Shown piece by piece: positions 7,562 through 60,440 of a DNA stretch of 64,000 bases. The stretch lies in the IMG/VR virus record IMGVR_UViG_3300023174_000069. One strand, written 5' to 3'. The stretch comes from an uncultured virus (IMG/VR IMGVR_UViG_3300023174_000069). Taxonomy: Duplodnaviria > Heunggongvirae > Uroviricota > Caudoviricetes. Position 1 is the stretch's first letter. Every line of letters starts with the position of its first letter. Under the pieces are notes generated by a model, which worked only from the letters and a program-made list of their open reading frames with translations, did no database searches and was not told the DNA's origin. The translations under genes were made by a program, and so were the position numbers.

Positions 7562-8134
7562 ATGAAACTCATTCAATCATTCAAACAAAGATTACTCCAC
7601 GAGGCAAGCGTTAAGAGCTTGTCTCGTATATGGCAGCACACCAACGAATCAAACATTGGTATGATTACTGCCTATCGTGGTGAGCTTGATCTTAAAAAGA
7701 ATGAGATGAGAAACAAGGAACTAGCTACACTGATACGTCAAGCTGGATTCGGATACATTCAAGTAACAGGCTTTTATATCGAGAATCTTGGTCAAGATGA
7801 CGAACGAAAGGTTCAGGAAAAGTCCTTTTTGATAATGTCACAGGCAAGTGACTCTGGTAAACTACGAGATTTTCTTATTAAGATGGGCATCAAGTTCAAT
7901 CAGGATTCAGTCTTTTATAAAGATGTAACCAAGGACAAAGGTGTCCTTATAGGAACAGCTTCAGGTAGATGGCCTGGGCTTAACACAGAAGTAGTAGCTG
8001 GTAGATTCACGCCACAGAAGCTAGGAACGTATTATACGAAGATGAAAGGTGATCGTAAGTTCACATTCGAGTCGGTTGAATGTCCTCAGGGGCTCATGCC
8101 TAGAGCGTTACAAGAGAAATTAGAAAACCGCTAA
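7562..8134 (+). CDS. SAM lyase (T3 SAMase-like) with capsid-targeting-like N-terminus
   Basis: ITAYRGEL..N..R...LIRQAG..TGFYIE..QEKS..FNQDSV matches T3 SAMase VSAFRSNL..N..R...LRAA..TGCYRE..EEKT..WEQDCV (recalled). Confidence 0.68.
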   Translation: MKLIQSFKQRLLHEASVKSLSRIWQHTNESNIGMITAYRGELDLKKNEMRNKELATLIRQAGFGYIQVTGFYIENLGQDDERKVQEKSFLIMSQASDSGKLRDFLIKMGIKFNQDSVFYKDVTKDKGVLIGTASGRWPGLNTEVVAGRFTPQKLGTYYTKMKGDRKFTFESVECPQGLMPRALQEKLENR

Positions 8135-15206: not shown

Positions 15207-16667
15207 ATGTCTGAACGATTTTATACAAATTGCACCTGCGTTGGCAACAACATTCTTTATAGAGGAGTTGAAAACAATAAGCGAATTAGTAAAAAGTTTA
15301 CTTTTCGTCCAAGTCTTTTCATACCCACAGATAAACAAACAAAATGGAAGACACTAGATGGTAAATGCGTTGATAAGATTCAGTTTGACGATATTAATGA
15401 TGCCAAAGATTTTGTTAGAAAGTATGAGCATATCGATAATTTTACTTATTATGGAAACACAAAGTATCAGTATGTTCATATAGCAGATTCTTTTCCTGAG
15501 ATGATCGATTACGAGTTTTCTCAGATTGTTATTGCTAACATCGATATCGAGGTTGCATCTGAAGCAGGCTTTGCGCCTGTAGAAAACCCATTTGAGCAAG
15601 TAATTGCTATCACAGTTGAGTGTCGTGGTACTTATGTTGTGTTTGGTTGTGGAGATTTTACTACTGAAAATCCTCAAGTAAAATACATCAAGTGTGACGA
15701 TGAGATGGACTTGTTGAAGCGATTCATGACTCACTGGGAACATATTGCTCCTGATGTAGTCACTGGATGGAACGTACAGTTTTATGATATTCCTTACCTT
15801 GTAAATCGCATCTCTAGATTGTTCAGCGACAAAGAAGCCAAGCGATTGTCACCATGGAAGTATCTTTCAACTAGATCTGCTTATTATAAGGGTCGCCAAC
15901 AGCAAGTAGTAGAGCTTGTAGGTATATCAACACTAGATTACTTAGAGCTTTATGGTAAGTTTCAGCCTAAGCAAGAGAGTCAAAAGCTAAACTACATCGC
16001 TCACGTTGAGTTAGGAGAAAAGAAGATTTCATATGAAGAATATGGCGATCTTCATACATTATACAAGCAGAACTATCAAAAGTTTATCGAGTATAACATA
16101 AAAGACGTAGAGCTTGTTAAAAAGCTAGAAGAAAAGCTAAAGCTGATAGAGATGTGTGCTGCTTTGGCTTATGATGCTAAGGTTAATTTAACAGATGTAT
16201 TCGCTCAAGTTAGAATGTGGGATACTATCATATTCAATCATCTCAAGAAGCAAAACATAGTAATGCCTCGTCTAGTTGATAATGAGAAGAATGCTGACTA
16301 CGCCGGCGCATATGTTAAAGAAGTTGTTCCTGGTATGTACGAGTGGGTTGTATCATTCGATTTGAACTCTCTGTATCCTAATTTGATTGCACAGTTTAAT
16401 ATTTCTCCTGAGTGTCTTATTACCAACAAGTATAGAAATGTTACCGTTCAATCATTATTGGACAAGTCCATGGATACCAAGGATTTGACTTCGGATAATA
16501 TTAGTTTGGCTGCCAATGGACACTGCTTCAGCAACGATAAGATTGGCTTTTTACCAGATATTCTTATGCGTATGTACGAAGATCGAAAGACCTACAAAAA
16601 GAAGATGTTGGAATCTCAGAAAGAATTGGAAAGAGTTAAAGAAGAATTAGCTCGTCGTGGATTATAA
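15207..16667 (+). CDS. 43: Family B DNA polymerase, N-terminal subunit (gp43A)
   Basis: ExoI DIEV, ExoII GWNVQFYDIPY, ExoIII YNIKDV, motif A SFDLNSLYP; ends in the first fingers helix. Confidence 0.95.
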   Translation: MSERFYTNCTCVGNNILYRGVENNKRISKKFTFRPSLFIPTDKQTKWKTLDGKCVDKIQFDDINDAKDFVRKYEHIDNFTYYGNTKYQYVHIADSFPEMIDYEFSQIVIANIDIEVASEAGFAPVENPFEQVIAITVECRGTYVVFGCGDFTTENPQVKYIKCDDEMDLLKRFMTHWEHIAPDVVTGWNVQFYDIPYLVNRISRLFSDKEAKRLSPWKYLSTRSAYYKGRQQQVVELVGISTLDYLELYGKFQPKQESQKLNYIAHVELGEKKISYEEYGDLHTLYKQNYQKFIEYNIKDVELVKKLEEKLKLIEMCAALAYDAKVNLTDVFAQVRMWDTIIFNHLKKQNIVMPRLVDNEKNADYAGAYVKEVVPGMYEWVVSFDLNSLYPNLIAQFNISPECLITNKYRNVTVQSLLDKSMDTKDLTSDNISLAANGHCFSNDKIGFLPDILMRMYEDRKTYKKKMLESQKELERVKEELARRGL

Positions 16668-19019: not shown

Positions 19020-19094
19020 TGGCGAGTAATTCAGTGGAAGAATGGCTGACTGTTAATCAGCTCGTCGTAGGTTCGATCCCTACCTCGCCAGCCA
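19020..19094 (+). tRNA. tRNA-Asn(GTT)
   Basis: Acceptor TGGCGAG/CTCGCCA, anticodon arm GCTGA-CTGTTAA-TCAGC, T loop TTCGATC, encoded CCA. Confidence 0.93.
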
Positions 19095-19099
19095 AAGTT

Positions 19100-19175
19100 G
19101 CGCTTGTAGCTCAGTTGGTAGAGCAGGAGACTTTTAATCTCAAGGTCACAGGTTCGATCCCTGTCGAGCGCACCA
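19100..19175 (+). tRNA. tRNA-Lys(TTT)
   Basis: Acceptor GCGCTTG/CGAGCGC, anticodon loop CTTTTAA, T loop TTCGATC, encoded CCA. Confidence 0.93.
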
Positions 19176-19178
19176 TGA

Positions 19179-19251
19179 GTCTCCATCGTCTAGTGGCCTA
19201 GGACACCCGCCTTTCACGCAGGTAACACGGGTTCAAATCCCGTTGGAGACA
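19179..19251 (+). tRNA. tRNA-Glu(TTC)
   Basis: Acceptor GTCTCCA/TGGAGAC, anticodon loop CTTTCAC, T loop TTCAAAT; CCA not encoded. Confidence 0.92.
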
Positions 19252-19858: not shown

Positions 19859-20968
19859 ATGACTCAAGATTTGTCCAAACTCTCTGATATTGAACTAAAA
19901 GCCTACGCTAGAAAATTGTCATTTGATATTTCAAAATATCATAACTTTCAGCTTACAAAAAAGATTCAGCTAAACTCTGCCTATGGTGCCATGGGTAATC
20001 AATACTTTCGTTTCTACGATATTCGTTTGGCTGAAGCCGTTACACTTTCAGGACAGTTAGTGATTCAGTGGCTTGCTAAAGATATCAACAAGTATCTTAA
20101 CACGTTGCTTAAAACTTCAGATATCGATTATGTAATTGCCATCGACACAGATTCCATATATCTAAATCTTAAACAGCTTGTTGAGATGGTGTACAAAGAC
20201 AAGTTGCCTGATGATAAGTCCAAGATAGTTGATTTCTTAGATAAGGTTGCGGAAGAAAAGATACAAAAGGTAATCGATAAGAGCTGTCAAGAGCTTAGAC
20301 AATATTTAAATGCTCGCTCCCAAAAGATGCAGATGAAGCGAGAGTCTATTGCTGACAAAGCAATTTGGACAGCCAAGAAACGATACATTCTTAACGTATA
20401 TGATTCTGAAGGCGTCCGCTACGAAACACCAAAGCTAAAGATTCAAGGCATTGAAGCTGTCAAGTCATCAACTCCTGAAGTGTGTCGCCAAAAGATTAAA
20501 GATGCTATTAAGCTGATACTTACCAAAACACAATCAGATTTGCATCAGTACATAAACACATTCAAAGAACAGTTCAAGCAGTTGTCACCAGAGTTTGTGG
20601 CGTTTCCACGAGGTTGTAATGGTATTGGAACGTATTCTGATCCCAAAGCCATTTATAAGAAAGGAACTCCAATTCATGTTCGTGGTGCCTTGGTTTATAA
20701 TCGTCTCATAAAAGACAAGAAATTGGACAAAAAATATCCTTGCATCCATGAAGGAGATAAGATAAAGTTTATATACTTGAGAGAGCCTAATCCAGTACAA
20801 GAAAATGTTATCACTATGAGTGAAGAAGGTTTGCCGCAAGAGCTAAATCTACACAAGTATGTTGATTACGAATTGCAGTTTGAAAAGACGTTTGTTGATC
20901 CTCTCAAGATTATTTTGAACGCAATTAATTGGTCGACAAAGAAGACAGTGAGTTTTGATGATTTATAG
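19859..20968 (+). CDS. 43: Family B DNA polymerase, C-terminal subunit (gp43B)
   Basis: Motif B KKIQLNSAYG, motif C IDTDSIY, KKRY, KSSTP; C-terminal clamp-binding SFDDL. Confidence 0.95.
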   Translation: MTQDLSKLSDIELKAYARKLSFDISKYHNFQLTKKIQLNSAYGAMGNQYFRFYDIRLAEAVTLSGQLVIQWLAKDINKYLNTLLKTSDIDYVIAIDTDSIYLNLKQLVEMVYKDKLPDDKSKIVDFLDKVAEEKIQKVIDKSCQELRQYLNARSQKMQMKRESIADKAIWTAKKRYILNVYDSEGVRYETPKLKIQGIEAVKSSTPEVCRQKIKDAIKLILTKTQSDLHQYINTFKEQFKQLSPEFVAFPRGCNGIGTYSDPKAIYKKGTPIHVRGALVYNRLIKDKKLDKKYPCIHEGDKIKFIYLREPNPVQENVITMSEEGLPQELNLHKYVDYELQFEKTFVDPLKIILNAINWSTKKTVSFDDL

Positions 20969-46922: not shown

Positions 46923-47183
46923 ATGCCAACATACGATTACCTCTGCACAGAATGTCAGTTTAAATTTGATAAAATATTAAGAATTGACGACAGAGAAACT
47001 CCGACAAAAGATCCTTGTCCAAATTGTAACAACACTTCTGTTACTTTAACGTTATCTGCACCATCATTAGTCAGTCCTTTTAGAATAGACGGATTAAAAA
47101 AACCTTCAGGAGCATTTAAAGACAGAATGACTCAAATTAAAACGGGATTGGGCAAAACGAAACATAATTTAAGGGATCACTAA
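46923..47183 (+). CDS. FmdB-family zinc-ribbon protein
   Basis: MPTYDYLCTEC...CPNC; GGAG RBS. Confidence 0.8.
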   Translation: MPTYDYLCTECQFKFDKILRIDDRETPTKDPCPNCNNTSVTLTLSAPSLVSPFRIDGLKKPSGAFKDRMTQIKTGLGKTKHNLRDH

Positions 47184-47947
47184 TGGGCAAAAGATCTAGA
47201 CAGTCGTCTCGCCAGCCGGAAGAAGTAACTTTAATAGAAGAAATTAGAGACGAATACAGACGGCAAAAGAAAATATTAAAACACAATTTTTCTTTAGCGA
47301 CCATAACTCCTTTAACAGACAATCAAGAAGGAGCGTTTCATGCTAACGGCTCAGGAAAAAATCTTCTTCTTTATGGTGTAGCAGGAACCGGAAAAACTTT
47401 TCTTGCAACATACTTTGCACTTAATGATCTTTTGTCTGGAATGGCAAAAAGAATAATTATTGTTAGAAGTGCAGTAACGACTAGAGATCAGGGATTTCTT
47501 CCAGGCACTTTGCAAGAAAAAATGGCATTATACGAAGCACCATATCGTGAAATCTTTGCCGAGCTTTGTGGTGGAAGAAGAGATGTGTATGATCTTTTAA
47601 AAAAGAGAGACTATCTTGAGTTTATGTCAACTTCGTTCATACGAGGTGTTACATTCGATGATGCAATAATTATTGTAGATGAGGTGCAGAATTGTACCGA
47701 TCATGAAATCAATTCTATTCTTACTCGTGTAGGAAAAAACACTCGTGTAGTTTTGTGCGGAGATCATCGTCAAGACGACTTGAAAATGACTGGTAAAAAA
47801 AATCAAGTATCAGGAATAGAAAACTTGATAAAAATTGCCAAATTTATGAATAGTTTTTCCTTGGTACAATTTGATGTAAATGATATCGTAAGATCTGGAT
47901 TTGTAAAAGAATACATCATTGCCAGAATAAATCTGGGTCTAGATTAA
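47183..47947 (+). CDS. phoH: PhoH-like ATPase
   Basis: GVAGTGKT, GFLPG, FIRGVTF, VDEVQN, TRVG, GDHRQDDL, DIVRSG. Confidence 0.95.
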   Translation: MGKRSRQSSRQPEEVTLIEEIRDEYRRQKKILKHNFSLATITPLTDNQEGAFHANGSGKNLLLYGVAGTGKTFLATYFALNDLLSGMAKRIIIVRSAVTTRDQGFLPGTLQEKMALYEAPYREIFAELCGGRRDVYDLLKKRDYLEFMSTSFIRGVTFDDAIIIVDEVQNCTDHEINSILTRVGKNTRVVLCGDHRQDDLKMTGKKNQVSGIENLIKIAKFMNSFSLVQFDVNDIVRSGFVKEYIIARINLGLD

Positions 47948-48014: not shown

Positions 48015-48470
48015 ATGACAAAAAGCAAAAAAACAGAAGGTGTAAAGCACGATCAACAAAAAATTCGCTGGGATTTGGTACCATATGATGCGGTTAATGA
48101 AATAGCAAAAGTATTGACTTTTGGTGCAGCAAAGTATGAAGCTCGAAACTGGGAAAAAGGTATGAATTGGTCTAGAGTTTTTGGTGCTTTGCAAAGACAT
48201 CTAACTAGATGGTTTCATGGACAAGACAAGGACAAAGAAACTAGACTCACTCATTTAGCGAACGCCGGCTGTTGTTTGTTTTTTCTTCTGGCGTGGGAGC
48301 TACGACAAGTTGGAACAGACGATAGACCTAAGCTAGACCCAAAATTACTAGAACACATGGACAATACAGAATTCATGGAAAATATCTTTGAGATGTTAAA
48401 AGTTGCTCACGTTACCAGCGACTCTGATTCTGATCAAGATAGAAAAGAAGAGGAAGTATTAGCCAACTAA
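48015..48470 (+). CDS. DUF5664 dATP/dGTP diphosphohydrolase-like protein
   Basis: KHDQQKIRWDLVP, VLTFGAAKY..RNWEKG, ALQRHL, D.ET.L.HLA. Confidence 0.85.
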   Translation: MTKSKKTEGVKHDQQKIRWDLVPYDAVNEIAKVLTFGAAKYEARNWEKGMNWSRVFGALQRHLTRWFHGQDKDKETRLTHLANAGCCLFFLLAWELRQVGTDDRPKLDPKLLEHMDNTEFMENIFEMLKVAHVTSDSDSDQDRKEEEVLAN

Positions 48471-48802: not shown

Positions 48803-48826
48803 TTTTTTCTTATTTTTATATATACT
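48799..48826 (+). promoter_or_regulatory. Sigma70-type promoter of tmRNA
   Basis: TTGATT-16-TATACT. Confidence 0.6.
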
Positions 48827-48835
48827 AGAAAATAC

Positions 48836-49232
48836 GGGCCTGCGTAGTTTCGACTTAATGCTCGGAGCTATTTCCCACAACACGATGATAGTCCTTGGCA
48901 TCGTAATAAATGGACTAACGTTTAAGTGCAAACTTTAACGAATCTGCTTACGCCTTAGCCGCATAAGCCGTGATTTATAGATGTTCTGCTAGTTACTCTA
49001 TAAATTGCGTAAGTCAAACTAGCGGTGCTCACAGATAACCATCCGTTATGTGAGGTTAAAACCTAATCTTGGGTGAGAAAGCTGATTGATCAGCCCCTTG
49101 TGACTGAGAGTTGTTTGAACGGAATGTCAACAGGGTTAAGTGCCTGAAAAGCAAGAAAGTTCAAACTATTGTTGTACACGGAATAGCAAAGACATTATGG
49201 ACATCGAGTGCGACTCTCGATCAGGTCCACCA
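48836..49232 (+). ncRNA. ssrA: tmRNA (transfer-messenger RNA)
   Basis: Acceptor GGGCCTG/CAGGTCC-A-CCA with G3-U70; TTCGAC after the 5' strand; helix GCTATTTCC/GGAATAGC; T arm TCGAG-TGCGACT-CTCGA; tag 48928-48966 ANFNESAYALAA*. Confidence 0.95.
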
Positions 49233-49890: not shown

Positions 49891-50003
49891 ATACTATTGG
49901 GTTACTTGCTAGGGAGTGTTTTTATCGTTTCCTGCTCCGAATCTGATTCTGTAGCGGAACGGTGTCAAGAGTCAGAAGCAAGTAGCCCACTCAAAAGGAT
50001 TTT

Positions 50004-50216
50004 ATGATGAAAATTTTAACATCAATTTTAACTGTTTGTTTTGTTGTTGCACTATTGATTGGTGTTGCTCTGTTAGGAAAGTATCAACACAAAAATTTAA
50101 ATCTTCCTATTTGTTTAAATCAGTGTGGAGATAGTATTTGTTCGCCTATGGTTTGTAGCGGTCAAGGATGTCCTTGTCCTGAGACAAAATTTTCTTGTCC
50201 TGGTGATTGTAATTAG
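50004..50216 (+). CDS. Small membrane-anchored Cys-rich protein
   Basis: TM helix followed by C..CGD.IC...C....CPC.E....CP.DC. Confidence 0.65.
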   Translation: MMKILTSILTVCFVVALLIGVALLGKYQHKNLNLPICLNQCGDSICSPMVCSGQGCPCPETKFSCPGDCN

Positions 50217-50217
50217 T

Positions 50218-51096
50218 ATGAAATCTTTTAATAATTTTTTGCATGAGTCTATATTAGACCCAGAACAATCAAGTTTAAGTTCTGTGGTGTTTGATCTAAA
50301 CGATGAGCCTAAACTTAAAGATTCTGTAAGAGATGAGATTTTGACTAAAATTGCACATTTAGGCAAAACAGTTGATATAATCGACTATACTCTGATAGGT
50401 AGCATTTTAACTAGACGATTTGCAAACGATTCTGATATTGACATCAATGTTTTGGTGTCAGCTTCAGATGAAAAAATGAATCAAATTAGAAAAACTGCGG
50501 TTGAACTTAGTGGAGATTTTCTTTCAAACACAACACATCCCATAAACTTACATGTTTTAAACGACAAAGCCGACTATGACAATGCCAATAATTCGGCTGA
50601 CGGGGTTTTCGACATTAGCAATAATAAGTTTGTTCGCAAGCCTATAGAAAAACCATTTCATATAGAAAAATATATGAAATTATTTAAAGATGCGATTTCA
50701 AAGATTGATATTCTTAAAGACGAACTTAAAGACGATATCGTTGATTACAATGAGTTAAAACATTTTTCTAAAGACGATATGAAATCTTTACAAAAAGAAA
50801 TTGAATCAAAAATTAAAGAAATAGAAAGTGATGCACAAGGTTTGGTGAATCTATACGACAACATAAAAAAACAACGTGCCGATGGGTTTGCAAGATCATT
50901 AAGTGCATCCGAAATTAGACAGTATGGTGTTAAAAATAGGCTTCCAGGAAACGTCTTGTACAAGTTGCTGGAGCGTCATTTGTACCTTAATTTTTTACAC
51001 AAGATACAAGAGATTCTTGGAGATGATGAAAAACTCTCATCCAAAGAGATAGACCAACTAGATAATCTAGTAAAAACACAAAGTTATCAACTATAA
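50218..51096 (+). CDS. Pol-beta-superfamily nucleotidyltransferase with capsid-targeting-like N-terminus
   Basis: Real start ATG 50218: MKSFNNFLHE; IGS....F...SDIDINV, HPINLHV. Confidence 0.75.
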   Translation: MKSFNNFLHESILDPEQSSLSSVVFDLNDEPKLKDSVRDEILTKIAHLGKTVDIIDYTLIGSILTRRFANDSDIDINVLVSASDEKMNQIRKTAVELSGDFLSNTTHPINLHVLNDKADYDNANNSADGVFDISNNKFVRKPIEKPFHIEKYMKLFKDAISKIDILKDELKDDIVDYNELKHFSKDDMKSLQKEIESKIKEIESDAQGLVNLYDNIKKQRADGFARSLSASEIRQYGVKNRLPGNVLYKLLERHLYLNFLHKIQEILGDDEKLSSKEIDQLDNLVKTQSYQL

Positions 51097-51581: not shown

Positions 51582-51616
51582 AAATTTTTAGAATAAGAGA
51601 TTGGTTTTTATATATA

Positions 51617-51765
51617 GTAGTCTCATAGTAACAGCCCTATTTCGACTAACATGAAGCTGGTAGCGCATCAAACTGCTTCTATCTTTGGAAGACTTAGGAT
51701 TCTGGCTGTGAGTTTTATAAGTCGCTCTTGTGAGCGCAAGAATGGAAAAATGAGCTATGGCGCTT
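51617..51765 (+). ncRNA. Putative structured RNA of unknown family, upstream of the hammerhead
   Basis: GC-richer intergenic DNA with several helices and a loop (GGCTGT) complementary to upstream ACAGCC. Confidence 0.5.
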
Positions 51766-51838
51766 CTGCACCTGACGAGCCCTGAAGGGCGAAACAGTGC
51801 GTAGACACGGCAACTATCGTGTCTCGCCTGTAGTGCAG
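51766..51838 (+). ncRNA. Hammerhead ribozyme, type I
   Basis: Stem I CTGCAC/GTGCAG; core CTGACGA; stem II GCCC-TGAA-GGGC; GAAA; stem III CAG..GCG.AGACACG/CGTGTCT-CGC-CTG; GTA cleavage triplet (cut after 51832). Confidence 0.9.
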
Positions 51839-51854
51839 TTATATTAAATAATCA

Positions 51855-51883
51855 TAGACTTGTAAAAATCTCTGTGTTATTCT
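51855..51883 (+). promoter_or_regulatory. Sigma70-type promoter of DNA ligase
   Basis: TAGACT-17-TATTCT with TGn extension. Confidence 0.55.
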
Positions 51884-51917
51884 AAAACAACCACTTGCTT
51901 GTGGTTGTTTTTTTTTT
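51884..51917 (+). terminator. Intrinsic terminator
   Basis: AAAACAACCAC-ttgctt-GTGGTTGTTTT plus T run. Confidence 0.75.
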
Positions 51918-51922
51918 ATTTT

Positions 51923-59996: not shown

Positions 59997-60440
59997 TCAT
60001 TTTCCAAGAATCTTTATGCCTAAATCCTTTAGTGTATTTTCTGTCCATACTTGAAAGATTATATTCTTGGATTTAGCATGATCATTAGCTGCTTTCCATT
60101 TGGCTTGATTCTTTACATATTGAAACACTTCTGTGACATATCTTTTGCTGGTCTTGCTCGGTTTTTCGGGAAGTTTTGTGTATTTTTCGGGTTTTAATTC
60201 TATCCAATAGGTTTGTCCTGTTTGGAATGTAATAGTAAAATCTACGAAATAGCGATGGATAGCATTGTCGGTGGGACATAAATATGGAATGACTAATTCT
60301 TCGGAAGACCACTGTTTTATAGATGAGTTATTATCACACCACATCATGACAGAAAATTCCCACGAGGAGCGATAATATACATTAGTGATGTCACCAATGT
60401 ATTTGTTTGGATTTTTAATTTTAAATCGGCCTTGATGCAT
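59997..60440 (-). CDS. 4: Head completion nuclease gp4
   Basis: NPNKYIGD, YRSSWE, WSSEE, HRYFVDF, IELKP, NQAKWKAA, TE..L. Confidence 0.92.
   Translation of the reverse strand: MHQGRFKIKNPNKYIGDITNVYYRSSWEFSVMMWCDNNSSIKQWSSEELVIPYLCPTDNAIHRYFVDFTITFQTGQTYWIELKPEKYTKLPEKPSKTSKRYVTEVFQYVKNQAKWKAANDHAKSKNIIFQVWTENTLKDLGIKILGK

Follow-up and report, generated by a model that had tools for sequence, protein, structure and literature searches.

The stretch of DNA analysed here, referred to as the window, comprises 64,000 nucleotides of an uncultured member of the Caudoviricetes (IMG/VR record IMGVR_UViG_3300023174_000069). It spans replication and structural genes of a T4-type phage, has a G+C content of about 35%, and encodes gp32, gp59, RNase H, the clamp loader, RegA, UvsX-like and gp41-like proteins, and baseplate proteins. 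Upstream of a DNA ligase gene on the same strand, a complete type I hammerhead motif can be read straight from the sequence at 51766-51838 (+). The hammerhead forms the 3′ third of a conserved module that consists of an A/T box, a folded RNA body of ~144 nt, and the hammerhead itself (Table 1).

Two further non-coding RNA genes were observed nearby. The tmRNA gene at 48836-49232 (+) matches Rfam family RF00023 (74.8 bits, E 3e-27) and was not called as a tmRNA by ARAGORN, while a CyVA-1 RNA match at 49906-49981 (+) scores 43.4 bits, just over the gathering score of 41.4. Together with the hammerhead-capped RNA, these make three non-coding RNA genes within 3 kb. Elsewhere in the window, the family B DNA polymerase is apparently split into ORFs at 15207-16667 and 19859-20968 (+), about 3.2 kb apart, which enclose two unknown ORFs, a dCMP deaminase, tRNAs Asn/Lys/Glu (19020-19251), and a metallophosphoesterase. 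A protein with a dATP/dGTP diphosphohydrolase N-terminal domain (48015-48470, +; PF18909, E 5e-33) adjoins PhoH (47183-47947), a protein with a TnsA-like endonuclease N-terminal domain (59997-60440, -) lies among baseplate and tail genes, and an S-adenosylmethionine lyase family protein is encoded at 7562-8134 (+).

The nucleotidyltransferase upstream of the RNA carries a GS...DSDxD motif, and its N-terminal domain is modelled with a pLDDT of about 90. Foldseek matches to the model are weak (best E 0.0036) and fall among the TENT5/FAM46, MNT, ANT, and CD-NTase folds; they establish a Pol-beta-type fold and nothing narrower. The listed GTG start at 50125 probably lies 31 codons upstream of the true one.

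Table 1 Positions of the hammerhead-capped RNA module and adjoining features in the window
Feature	Position	Strand	Description
Pol-beta-type nucleotidyltransferase	50218-51096	+	GS...DSDxD motif
Promoter-like box	51602-51616	+	T-run, then TATATATA (51609-51616); 5 nt before first RNA helix
Long irregular hairpin of RNA body	51622-51712	+	RNAalifold
P1	51622-51629/51705-51712	+	First helix of long hairpin
Further long-hairpin pairs	51632-51634/51702-51704; 51636-51639/51695-51698; 51642-51643/51691-51692	+	RNAalifold
Upper long-hairpin pairs	51646-51649/51685-51688; 51653-51659/51673-51679	+	RNAalifold
Apical loop	51660-51672	+	First eight bases, GUAGCGCA (51660-51667), invariant
Second hairpin	51723-51736	+	CGCUC/GAGCG, loop UUGU; 3/5 pairs change on both sides
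Linker	51737-51765	+	A-rich, ends in GAGCUAUGGCGC(U/A)U; directly 5′ of stem I
Whole hammerhead domain	51766-51839	+	Ends with invariant U at 51839
Stem I	51766-51771/51833-51838	+	CUGCAC/GUGCAG; 6 bp, open end
Core CUGACGA	51772-51778	+	Hammerhead catalytic core
Stem II	51779-51782/51787-51790	+	GCCC/GGGC; 4 bp, loop UGAA (51783-51786)
GAAA	51791-51794	+	Core; G12 A13 A14 = 51791-51793
Stem III	51794-51831	+	19 pairs, bulged: ACAG/CUGU, U 51798, GCG/CGC, U 51802, AGACACGG/UCGUGUCU
Stem III loop	51811-51816	+	6 nt
H17 (A17)	51832	+	GUA site; predicted cut between 51832 and 51833
Predicted 3′ cleavage fragment (5′-OH)	51833-51921	+	To terminator-like hairpin and T-run; not conserved in relatives
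Terminator-like intrinsic hairpin	51884-51911	+	Strong, run of ten T; 45 nt after hammerhead

Architecture of the hammerhead motif

The bases C3 U4 G5 A6 N7 G8 A9 and G12 A13 A14 that mark the hammerhead class are all present. Three helices (6, 4, and 19 pairs) surround this core, an A15.1-U16.1 pair opens stem III, and the cleavage site has the form NUH, where H is not G. Stem I is open and loops cap stems II and III only, which is the type I topology. The original prediction of a type I hammerhead therefore stands, as all of the defining features at the sequence level are found in the window and are kept, with covariation, in ten relatives; its description of three closed stems does not, given that the open stem I is what defines the type. 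The long bulged stem III that it described is borne out by the 19 pairs and two bulged U residues, and the predicted cut after 51832 coincides with the site obtained by reading the motif (51832/51833).

To examine how distinctive the motif is, we scanned both strands with a descriptor requiring stems of at least 5, 3, and 3 pairs, which returned this site alone in the 64 kb. Among dinucleotide-preserving shuffles of the window, 3 of 300 contained any descriptor site. The predicted fold of the isolated 74 nt is the hammerhead junction (-34.1 kcal/mol), and this fold is retained in the 219-nt RNA (-71 kcal/mol, z = -2.1).

At gathering thresholds, Rfam yields no hammerhead match in the window for any family of clan CL00010. 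A permissive scan finds a local match to Hammerhead_HH9 (model positions 13-61) with a score of 21.4 bits and an E-value of 0.0065, against a gathering score of 52. Thirty-two stem III bases, lying between the ends that align, are counted in this alignment as an insertion relative to the 5-position loop of the model. The gathering score is an operational cut-off of particular seed alignments and not a property of the ribozyme class. Stem I has no internal loop, and the 4-bp pseudoknot is absent. No other ribozyme family, the HDV-like families included, matched anywhere in the window at E-values up to 0.5.

Conservation and reach of the family

Relatives were gathered by pattern scans and by a search with the ligase protein. 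These yielded eight viral contigs and two metagenome contigs, which with the window make 11 distinct sequences. The metagenome pattern scan gave 18 matches, of which three are genuine (L021, L022, and L024, the last being equal to L002); the remaining 15 fall by chance within unrelated genes and were dropped. The motif is kept in 11 of 11 sequences, all of which come from one phage clade, and shared ancestry inflates the conservation reported below.

All core bases are identical in the 11 sequences except at the free position N7, which is C in ten and A in L039, and the A15.1-U16.1 pair is present throughout. Base 17 is A in four, C in six, U in one, and G in none (GUA, GUC, GUU, and GUG, respectively; n = 11). 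Across the alignment, 93.8% of cells are paired in the hammerhead structure (n = 11), compared with 27-47% in slid controls. Six pairs have changed on both sides, all of them in stem III, a level reached by 0 of 500 shuffles, and stem III occurs in two alternative forms among the relatives. One G-C to G-U change is the only variation in stems I and II, so covariation says nothing for or against these two helices. Folded in isolation, the segment has the exact hammerhead junction as its minimum-energy structure in nine of the 11 sequences; the exceptions are L039, which gains one A-U pair involving base 17, and L022, in which the core is misfolded.

Loop II has six different sequences, every one of which ends in A, and all 11 have U immediately after stem I (51839), with everything beyond it diverging. 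The terminal A of loop II and U 51839 would fit a putative A-U loop contact within the tertiary contact between stem I and loop II. This tertiary contact is needed for fast cleavage at cellular Mg2+ concentrations. DNA contigs of a strain that is 95-99% alike show no change in the hammerhead, one in the linker, five in the upstream gene, and five in the terminator, where the differences are four bases in the loop and one T in the run.

The family of hammerhead-capped RNAs is narrow and is confined in our set to a small group of uncultured T4-related lake phages. Among 50,697 GenBank phage records, nothing similar was found to the 381-nt region (blastn) or to the surrounding 13 kb (megablast). 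A pattern combining linker and core had 0 matches in 185,579 bacterial and archaeal genomes, and a covariance model of the RNA body, searched against 52 sources, matched the window alone. Relatives of the nucleotidyltransferase number 53 in viral contigs, and most are without a hammerhead-capped RNA: nhmmer and the type I descriptor found the module around these 53 loci only in six contigs already in the set; a further locus, L065, is truncated by the end of its contig. Rfam gave no match at 20 distant nucleotidyltransferase loci.

The non-coding RNA module and its boundaries

The RNA body consists of the long hairpin, a second hairpin, and the linker, and four sequences (L004, L008, L010, and L022) have an optional third hairpin after the second. 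In the body structure (33 pairs, including the second hairpin), 95.6% of cells are paired (n = 11) and 13 of the 33 pairs change on both sides, a level that 0 of 500 shuffles reach. The long hairpin accounts for 28 of these pairs, ten of which have changed on both sides. The plus strand is the folded strand because G-U pairs are present, for example at pair 23:100 (10/11). The linker element GAGCUAUGGCGC is identical in ten of the 11 sequences, with a single C>U change in L039, and the 12-mer at the linker end is near-invariant. The linker is also complementary to part of the invariant apical loop, either through GUAGC with GCUAU or through AGCGC with GCGCU. This possible pairing has no covariation support because neither side varies.

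Two other identities were considered for the body and rejected. A reading as a 44-aa gene (51651-51785) fails in L003, where the frame stops after six codons, and in L008 and L010, where the start codon is changed; a reading as a tRNA or tmRNA fails with ARAGORN, which calls nothing there. Rfam 15, searched on both strands at E-values up to 10, has no match overlapping 51613-51765, and no aptamer-like family is found. The module is single-copy, as nhmmer detects no second copy within the window, and candidate targets of the apical loop or the linker occur within the window at chance level. Body and hammerhead together constitute a predicted RNA family that is supported by covariation and is absent from Rfam 15.

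The promoter-like box lies at the same place in all 11 loci, as TATATATAGTA in seven, CTAAATAGT in three, and CTAAATAAAC in one, and L039 retains it despite having a different upstream gene. The same TTTTTATATATA string is found at 48812-48824, 12 nt before the tmRNA gene, and CTAAATA precedes several gene starts in the window by 12-38 nt, those of baseplate genes among them. These boxes resemble the A/T-only late-promoter box of T4-type phages, and the box in front of the RNA is a putative promoter.

The conserved block begins at the A/T box and stops one base past stem I. Mean pairwise identity is 0.30 in the 100-nt upstream flank, rises to 0.69 in the RNA body and 0.75 in the hammerhead, and falls to 0.25 in the 100-nt downstream flank. 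On the upstream side, the nucleotidyltransferase is found in seven of 11 loci (54-81% identical over the aligned length), with a small variable ORF following it.

On the downstream side, a convergent gene on the minus strand abuts the hammerhead in eight of 11 loci (L036, L008, L037, L038, L039, L041, L042, and L021), its end lying -1 to 11 nt from the hammerhead. The encoded proteins are 245-411 aa long (187 aa in L021, where the contig end cuts the gene) and are mostly unrelated, the one mutual match being between those of L042 and L021. They belong to no Pfam family or match only PHROGs of unknown function, apart from a weak helix-hairpin-helix match below the Pfam threshold in L038. The slot 3′ of the hammerhead is thus occupied by swapped-in, mostly unrelated minus-strand genes, and the 3′ edge of the hammerhead looks like a recombination boundary. 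Because the convergent gene abuts the hammerhead, there is no room for a terminator in these eight loci.

The next gene lies on the same strand only in the window (ligase), in L040 (Hsp20, then ligase), and in L022 (ligase). The ligase gene lies 0.2-1.9 kb from the module, and in L039 it is on the opposite side and the opposite strand. L001, the closest ligase relative, has no module in the 840 nt examined. The shifts in distance and orientation, together with the absence from L001, indicate that the module is not a leader of the ligase gene, and the tie to DNA ligase made in the original prediction is incidental.

A probable ribozyme-made 3′ end

These features are most readily explained by a phage non-coding RNA that is transcribed on its own and has the hammerhead built in as its 3′ domain. 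Transcription would start a few bases past the A/T box, near 51622, and the RNA would fold its long hairpin body first and the hammerhead next. Once the 3′ strand of stem I (51833-51838) has been made, the motif predicts a cut between A51832 and G51833. The released RNA of ~211 nt (about 51622-51832) would retain the ribozyme core and carry a 2′,3′-cyclic phosphate, as expected from hammerhead chemistry. The later transcript would be left as a 5′-OH fragment, which in the window phage would be a piece of ~88 nt extending to the terminator and in most relatives would be an antisense RNA of the convergent neighbour gene. The phage could in this way obtain a precise 3′ end without a terminator, a host nuclease, or help from a protein.

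We consider it likely that cleavage after 51832 yields this RNA and that the hammerhead sets its 3′ end. A device for maturing the 3′ end of the upstream RNA had already been proposed for the locus, and this is the best-supported reading of it, in view of the covarying non-coding body directly upstream, the promoter-like box, the conservation that ends one base past stem I, and the lack of room for a terminator in 8/11 loci. Several observations weigh on the other side. For a trimming role, it is odd that about 67 nt of ribozyme stay behind on the product of a type I hammerhead. Stems I and II never covary, the Rfam score is below threshold (21.4 vs 52 bits), and the family is small (11 sequences, one clade). 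Furthermore, the ribozyme is not strictly needed to end the RNA in the window because a terminator lies 45 nt downstream.

The ribozyme could instead serve the downstream message, removing a structured leader and giving the mRNA of the ligase or next gene a 5′-OH that affects its stability or translation. Such a role would suit the three loci with a co-directional next gene (the window, L040, and L022) and the mere 6 nt that a type I hammerhead leaves on the downstream product, and hammerheads just before start codons and flanking genes have been published (Perreault et al. 2011, PMC3088659). The next gene is nevertheless convergent and unrelated in eight of 11 loci, the terminator-like hairpin separates the hammerhead from the ligase gene in the window, the closest ligase relative is without the module in 840 nt, and conservation lies upstream of the cut rather than downstream, all of which make a service to the next gene very improbable. 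A different objection concerns activity. The fold could be kept as a stable 3′ structure that does not cleave in vivo, serving to protect the end, to bind a protein, or to form part of a terminator; the invariance of stems I and II, the match below the Rfam threshold, and a run of seven U directly after stem I of L022, which resembles an intrinsic terminator, would all be compatible with this. The U-run, however, occurs in only one of 11 sequences. Apart from N7, the 11 non-helical core bases and the 15.1-16.1 pair show no variation in 11/11, base 17 takes only the three letters with which cleavage is possible, and the last A of loop II and the U after stem I are present in 11/11. These are the constraints that catalysis demands, rather than those of a mere hairpin, and we regard a non-cleaving role as decidedly improbable. 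That chance produced a hammerhead-like motif in this A/T-rich intergenic region is hardly credible: some site passes the loose descriptor in 3/300 shuffles of the window and Rfam makes no call at gathering thresholds, but the motif is conserved in ten relatives whose flanks are at random-level identity, and stem III covaries, so that this explanation is already refuted.

Body and hammerhead might also form one regulated device, an allosteric hammerhead in which the apical loop pairs with the linker and builds or gates the active fold in response to a ligand or protein. The apical-loop element GUAGCGCA and the linker element GAGCUAUGGCGC are the most conserved unpaired stretches and are complementary over 5 bp in two registers, the sole linker change (C>U in L039) still allows a G-U pair, and the module always moves as one unit. 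Against this, the pairing lacks covariation, both sides being invariant, the hammerhead folds alone in 9/11 sequences, no aptamer-like family matches, and invariant loops are equally expected of a protein-binding site; we judge regulation of this kind quite unlikely. It is likewise unlikely, when taken broadly, that the RNA is not merely trimmed and that body and hammerhead are one device, either by loop-linker gating or with the retained ribozyme as the business end. If the gating version were true, an apical loop docking on the linker beside stem I would make a natural allosteric hammerhead. If the retained-ribozyme version were true, the 2′,3′-cyclic-phosphate end could join 5′-OH RNAs, or the RNA could act as a decoy aimed at host machinery for the sensing or repair of such ends. 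The capacity of type I hammerheads for joining to 5′-OH RNAs is discussed in PMC3088659.

For the ribozyme-made 3′ end, the context offers a concrete and testable job, namely a phage RNA gene whose ribozyme would replace a terminator or host nucleases, with a 3′ end placed where an opposite-strand gene leaves a terminator no space. To our knowledge, hammerheads are common in phage DNA and a role is known for almost none. The clean boundaries of the family suit biochemical work on cleavage kinetics, on the invariant loop and linker, and on protein partners such as the syntenic nucleotidyltransferase.

T4-type phages encode small stable RNAs, the species 1 and 2 RNAs, which belong to the tRNA cluster and depend on host enzymes for maturation. 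The RNA reported here shares with them the character of a discrete, structured non-coding RNA of a T4-type phage; unlike them, it lies in the replication-gene region and has its own promoter-like box and its own ribozyme. Our search of openly accessible papers found no description of a T4-type phage in which a hammerhead is the constant 3′ domain of an RNA gene dedicated to a non-coding RNA. Phage intergenic hammerheads (PaP3 and Bcep176) and gene-flanking ones are described by Perreault et al. 2011 (PMC3088659). With the type I hammerheads of bacteria, phages, and prophages (CL00010, PMC3088659), the present motif has in common the core, the three-helix junction, the NUH site, and the open stem I, and with the phage examples it also shares a location in an intergenic region. 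It differs from them in its long, bulged stem III of 19 pairs, which takes two forms among relatives, in a 6-bp stem I that has no internal loop, in the absence of the 4-bp pseudoknot, and in an Rfam score below gathering. Here, rather than an intergenic spacer, the ribozyme would form the constant 3′ domain of a non-coding RNA with a gene of its own.

A further parallel is provided by the theta ribozymes, minimal HDV-like ribozymes that adjoin tRNA genes of gut Caudoviricetes and for which processing of the tRNA 3′ trailer has been postulated (PMC10879173). The idea in common is a cis-acting ribozyme placed 3′ of a phage non-coding RNA, which gives it an end without host RNases. The ribozyme class differs, however: an HDV-like ribozyme cleaves at its own 5′ edge, so that its product is ribozyme-free, whereas about 67 nt of hammerhead would stay on the RNA here; the cargo is a tRNA there and another kind of RNA here, and hosts and habitat differ. 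The nested double pseudoknot of HDV ribozymes is lacking, the motif being a hammerhead, and the likeness to theta ribozymes is functional only. As read from its sequence, the motif is a real hammerhead and a new member of an established class of ribozymes. Its arrangement, in which it caps a novel family of non-coding RNAs, is new.
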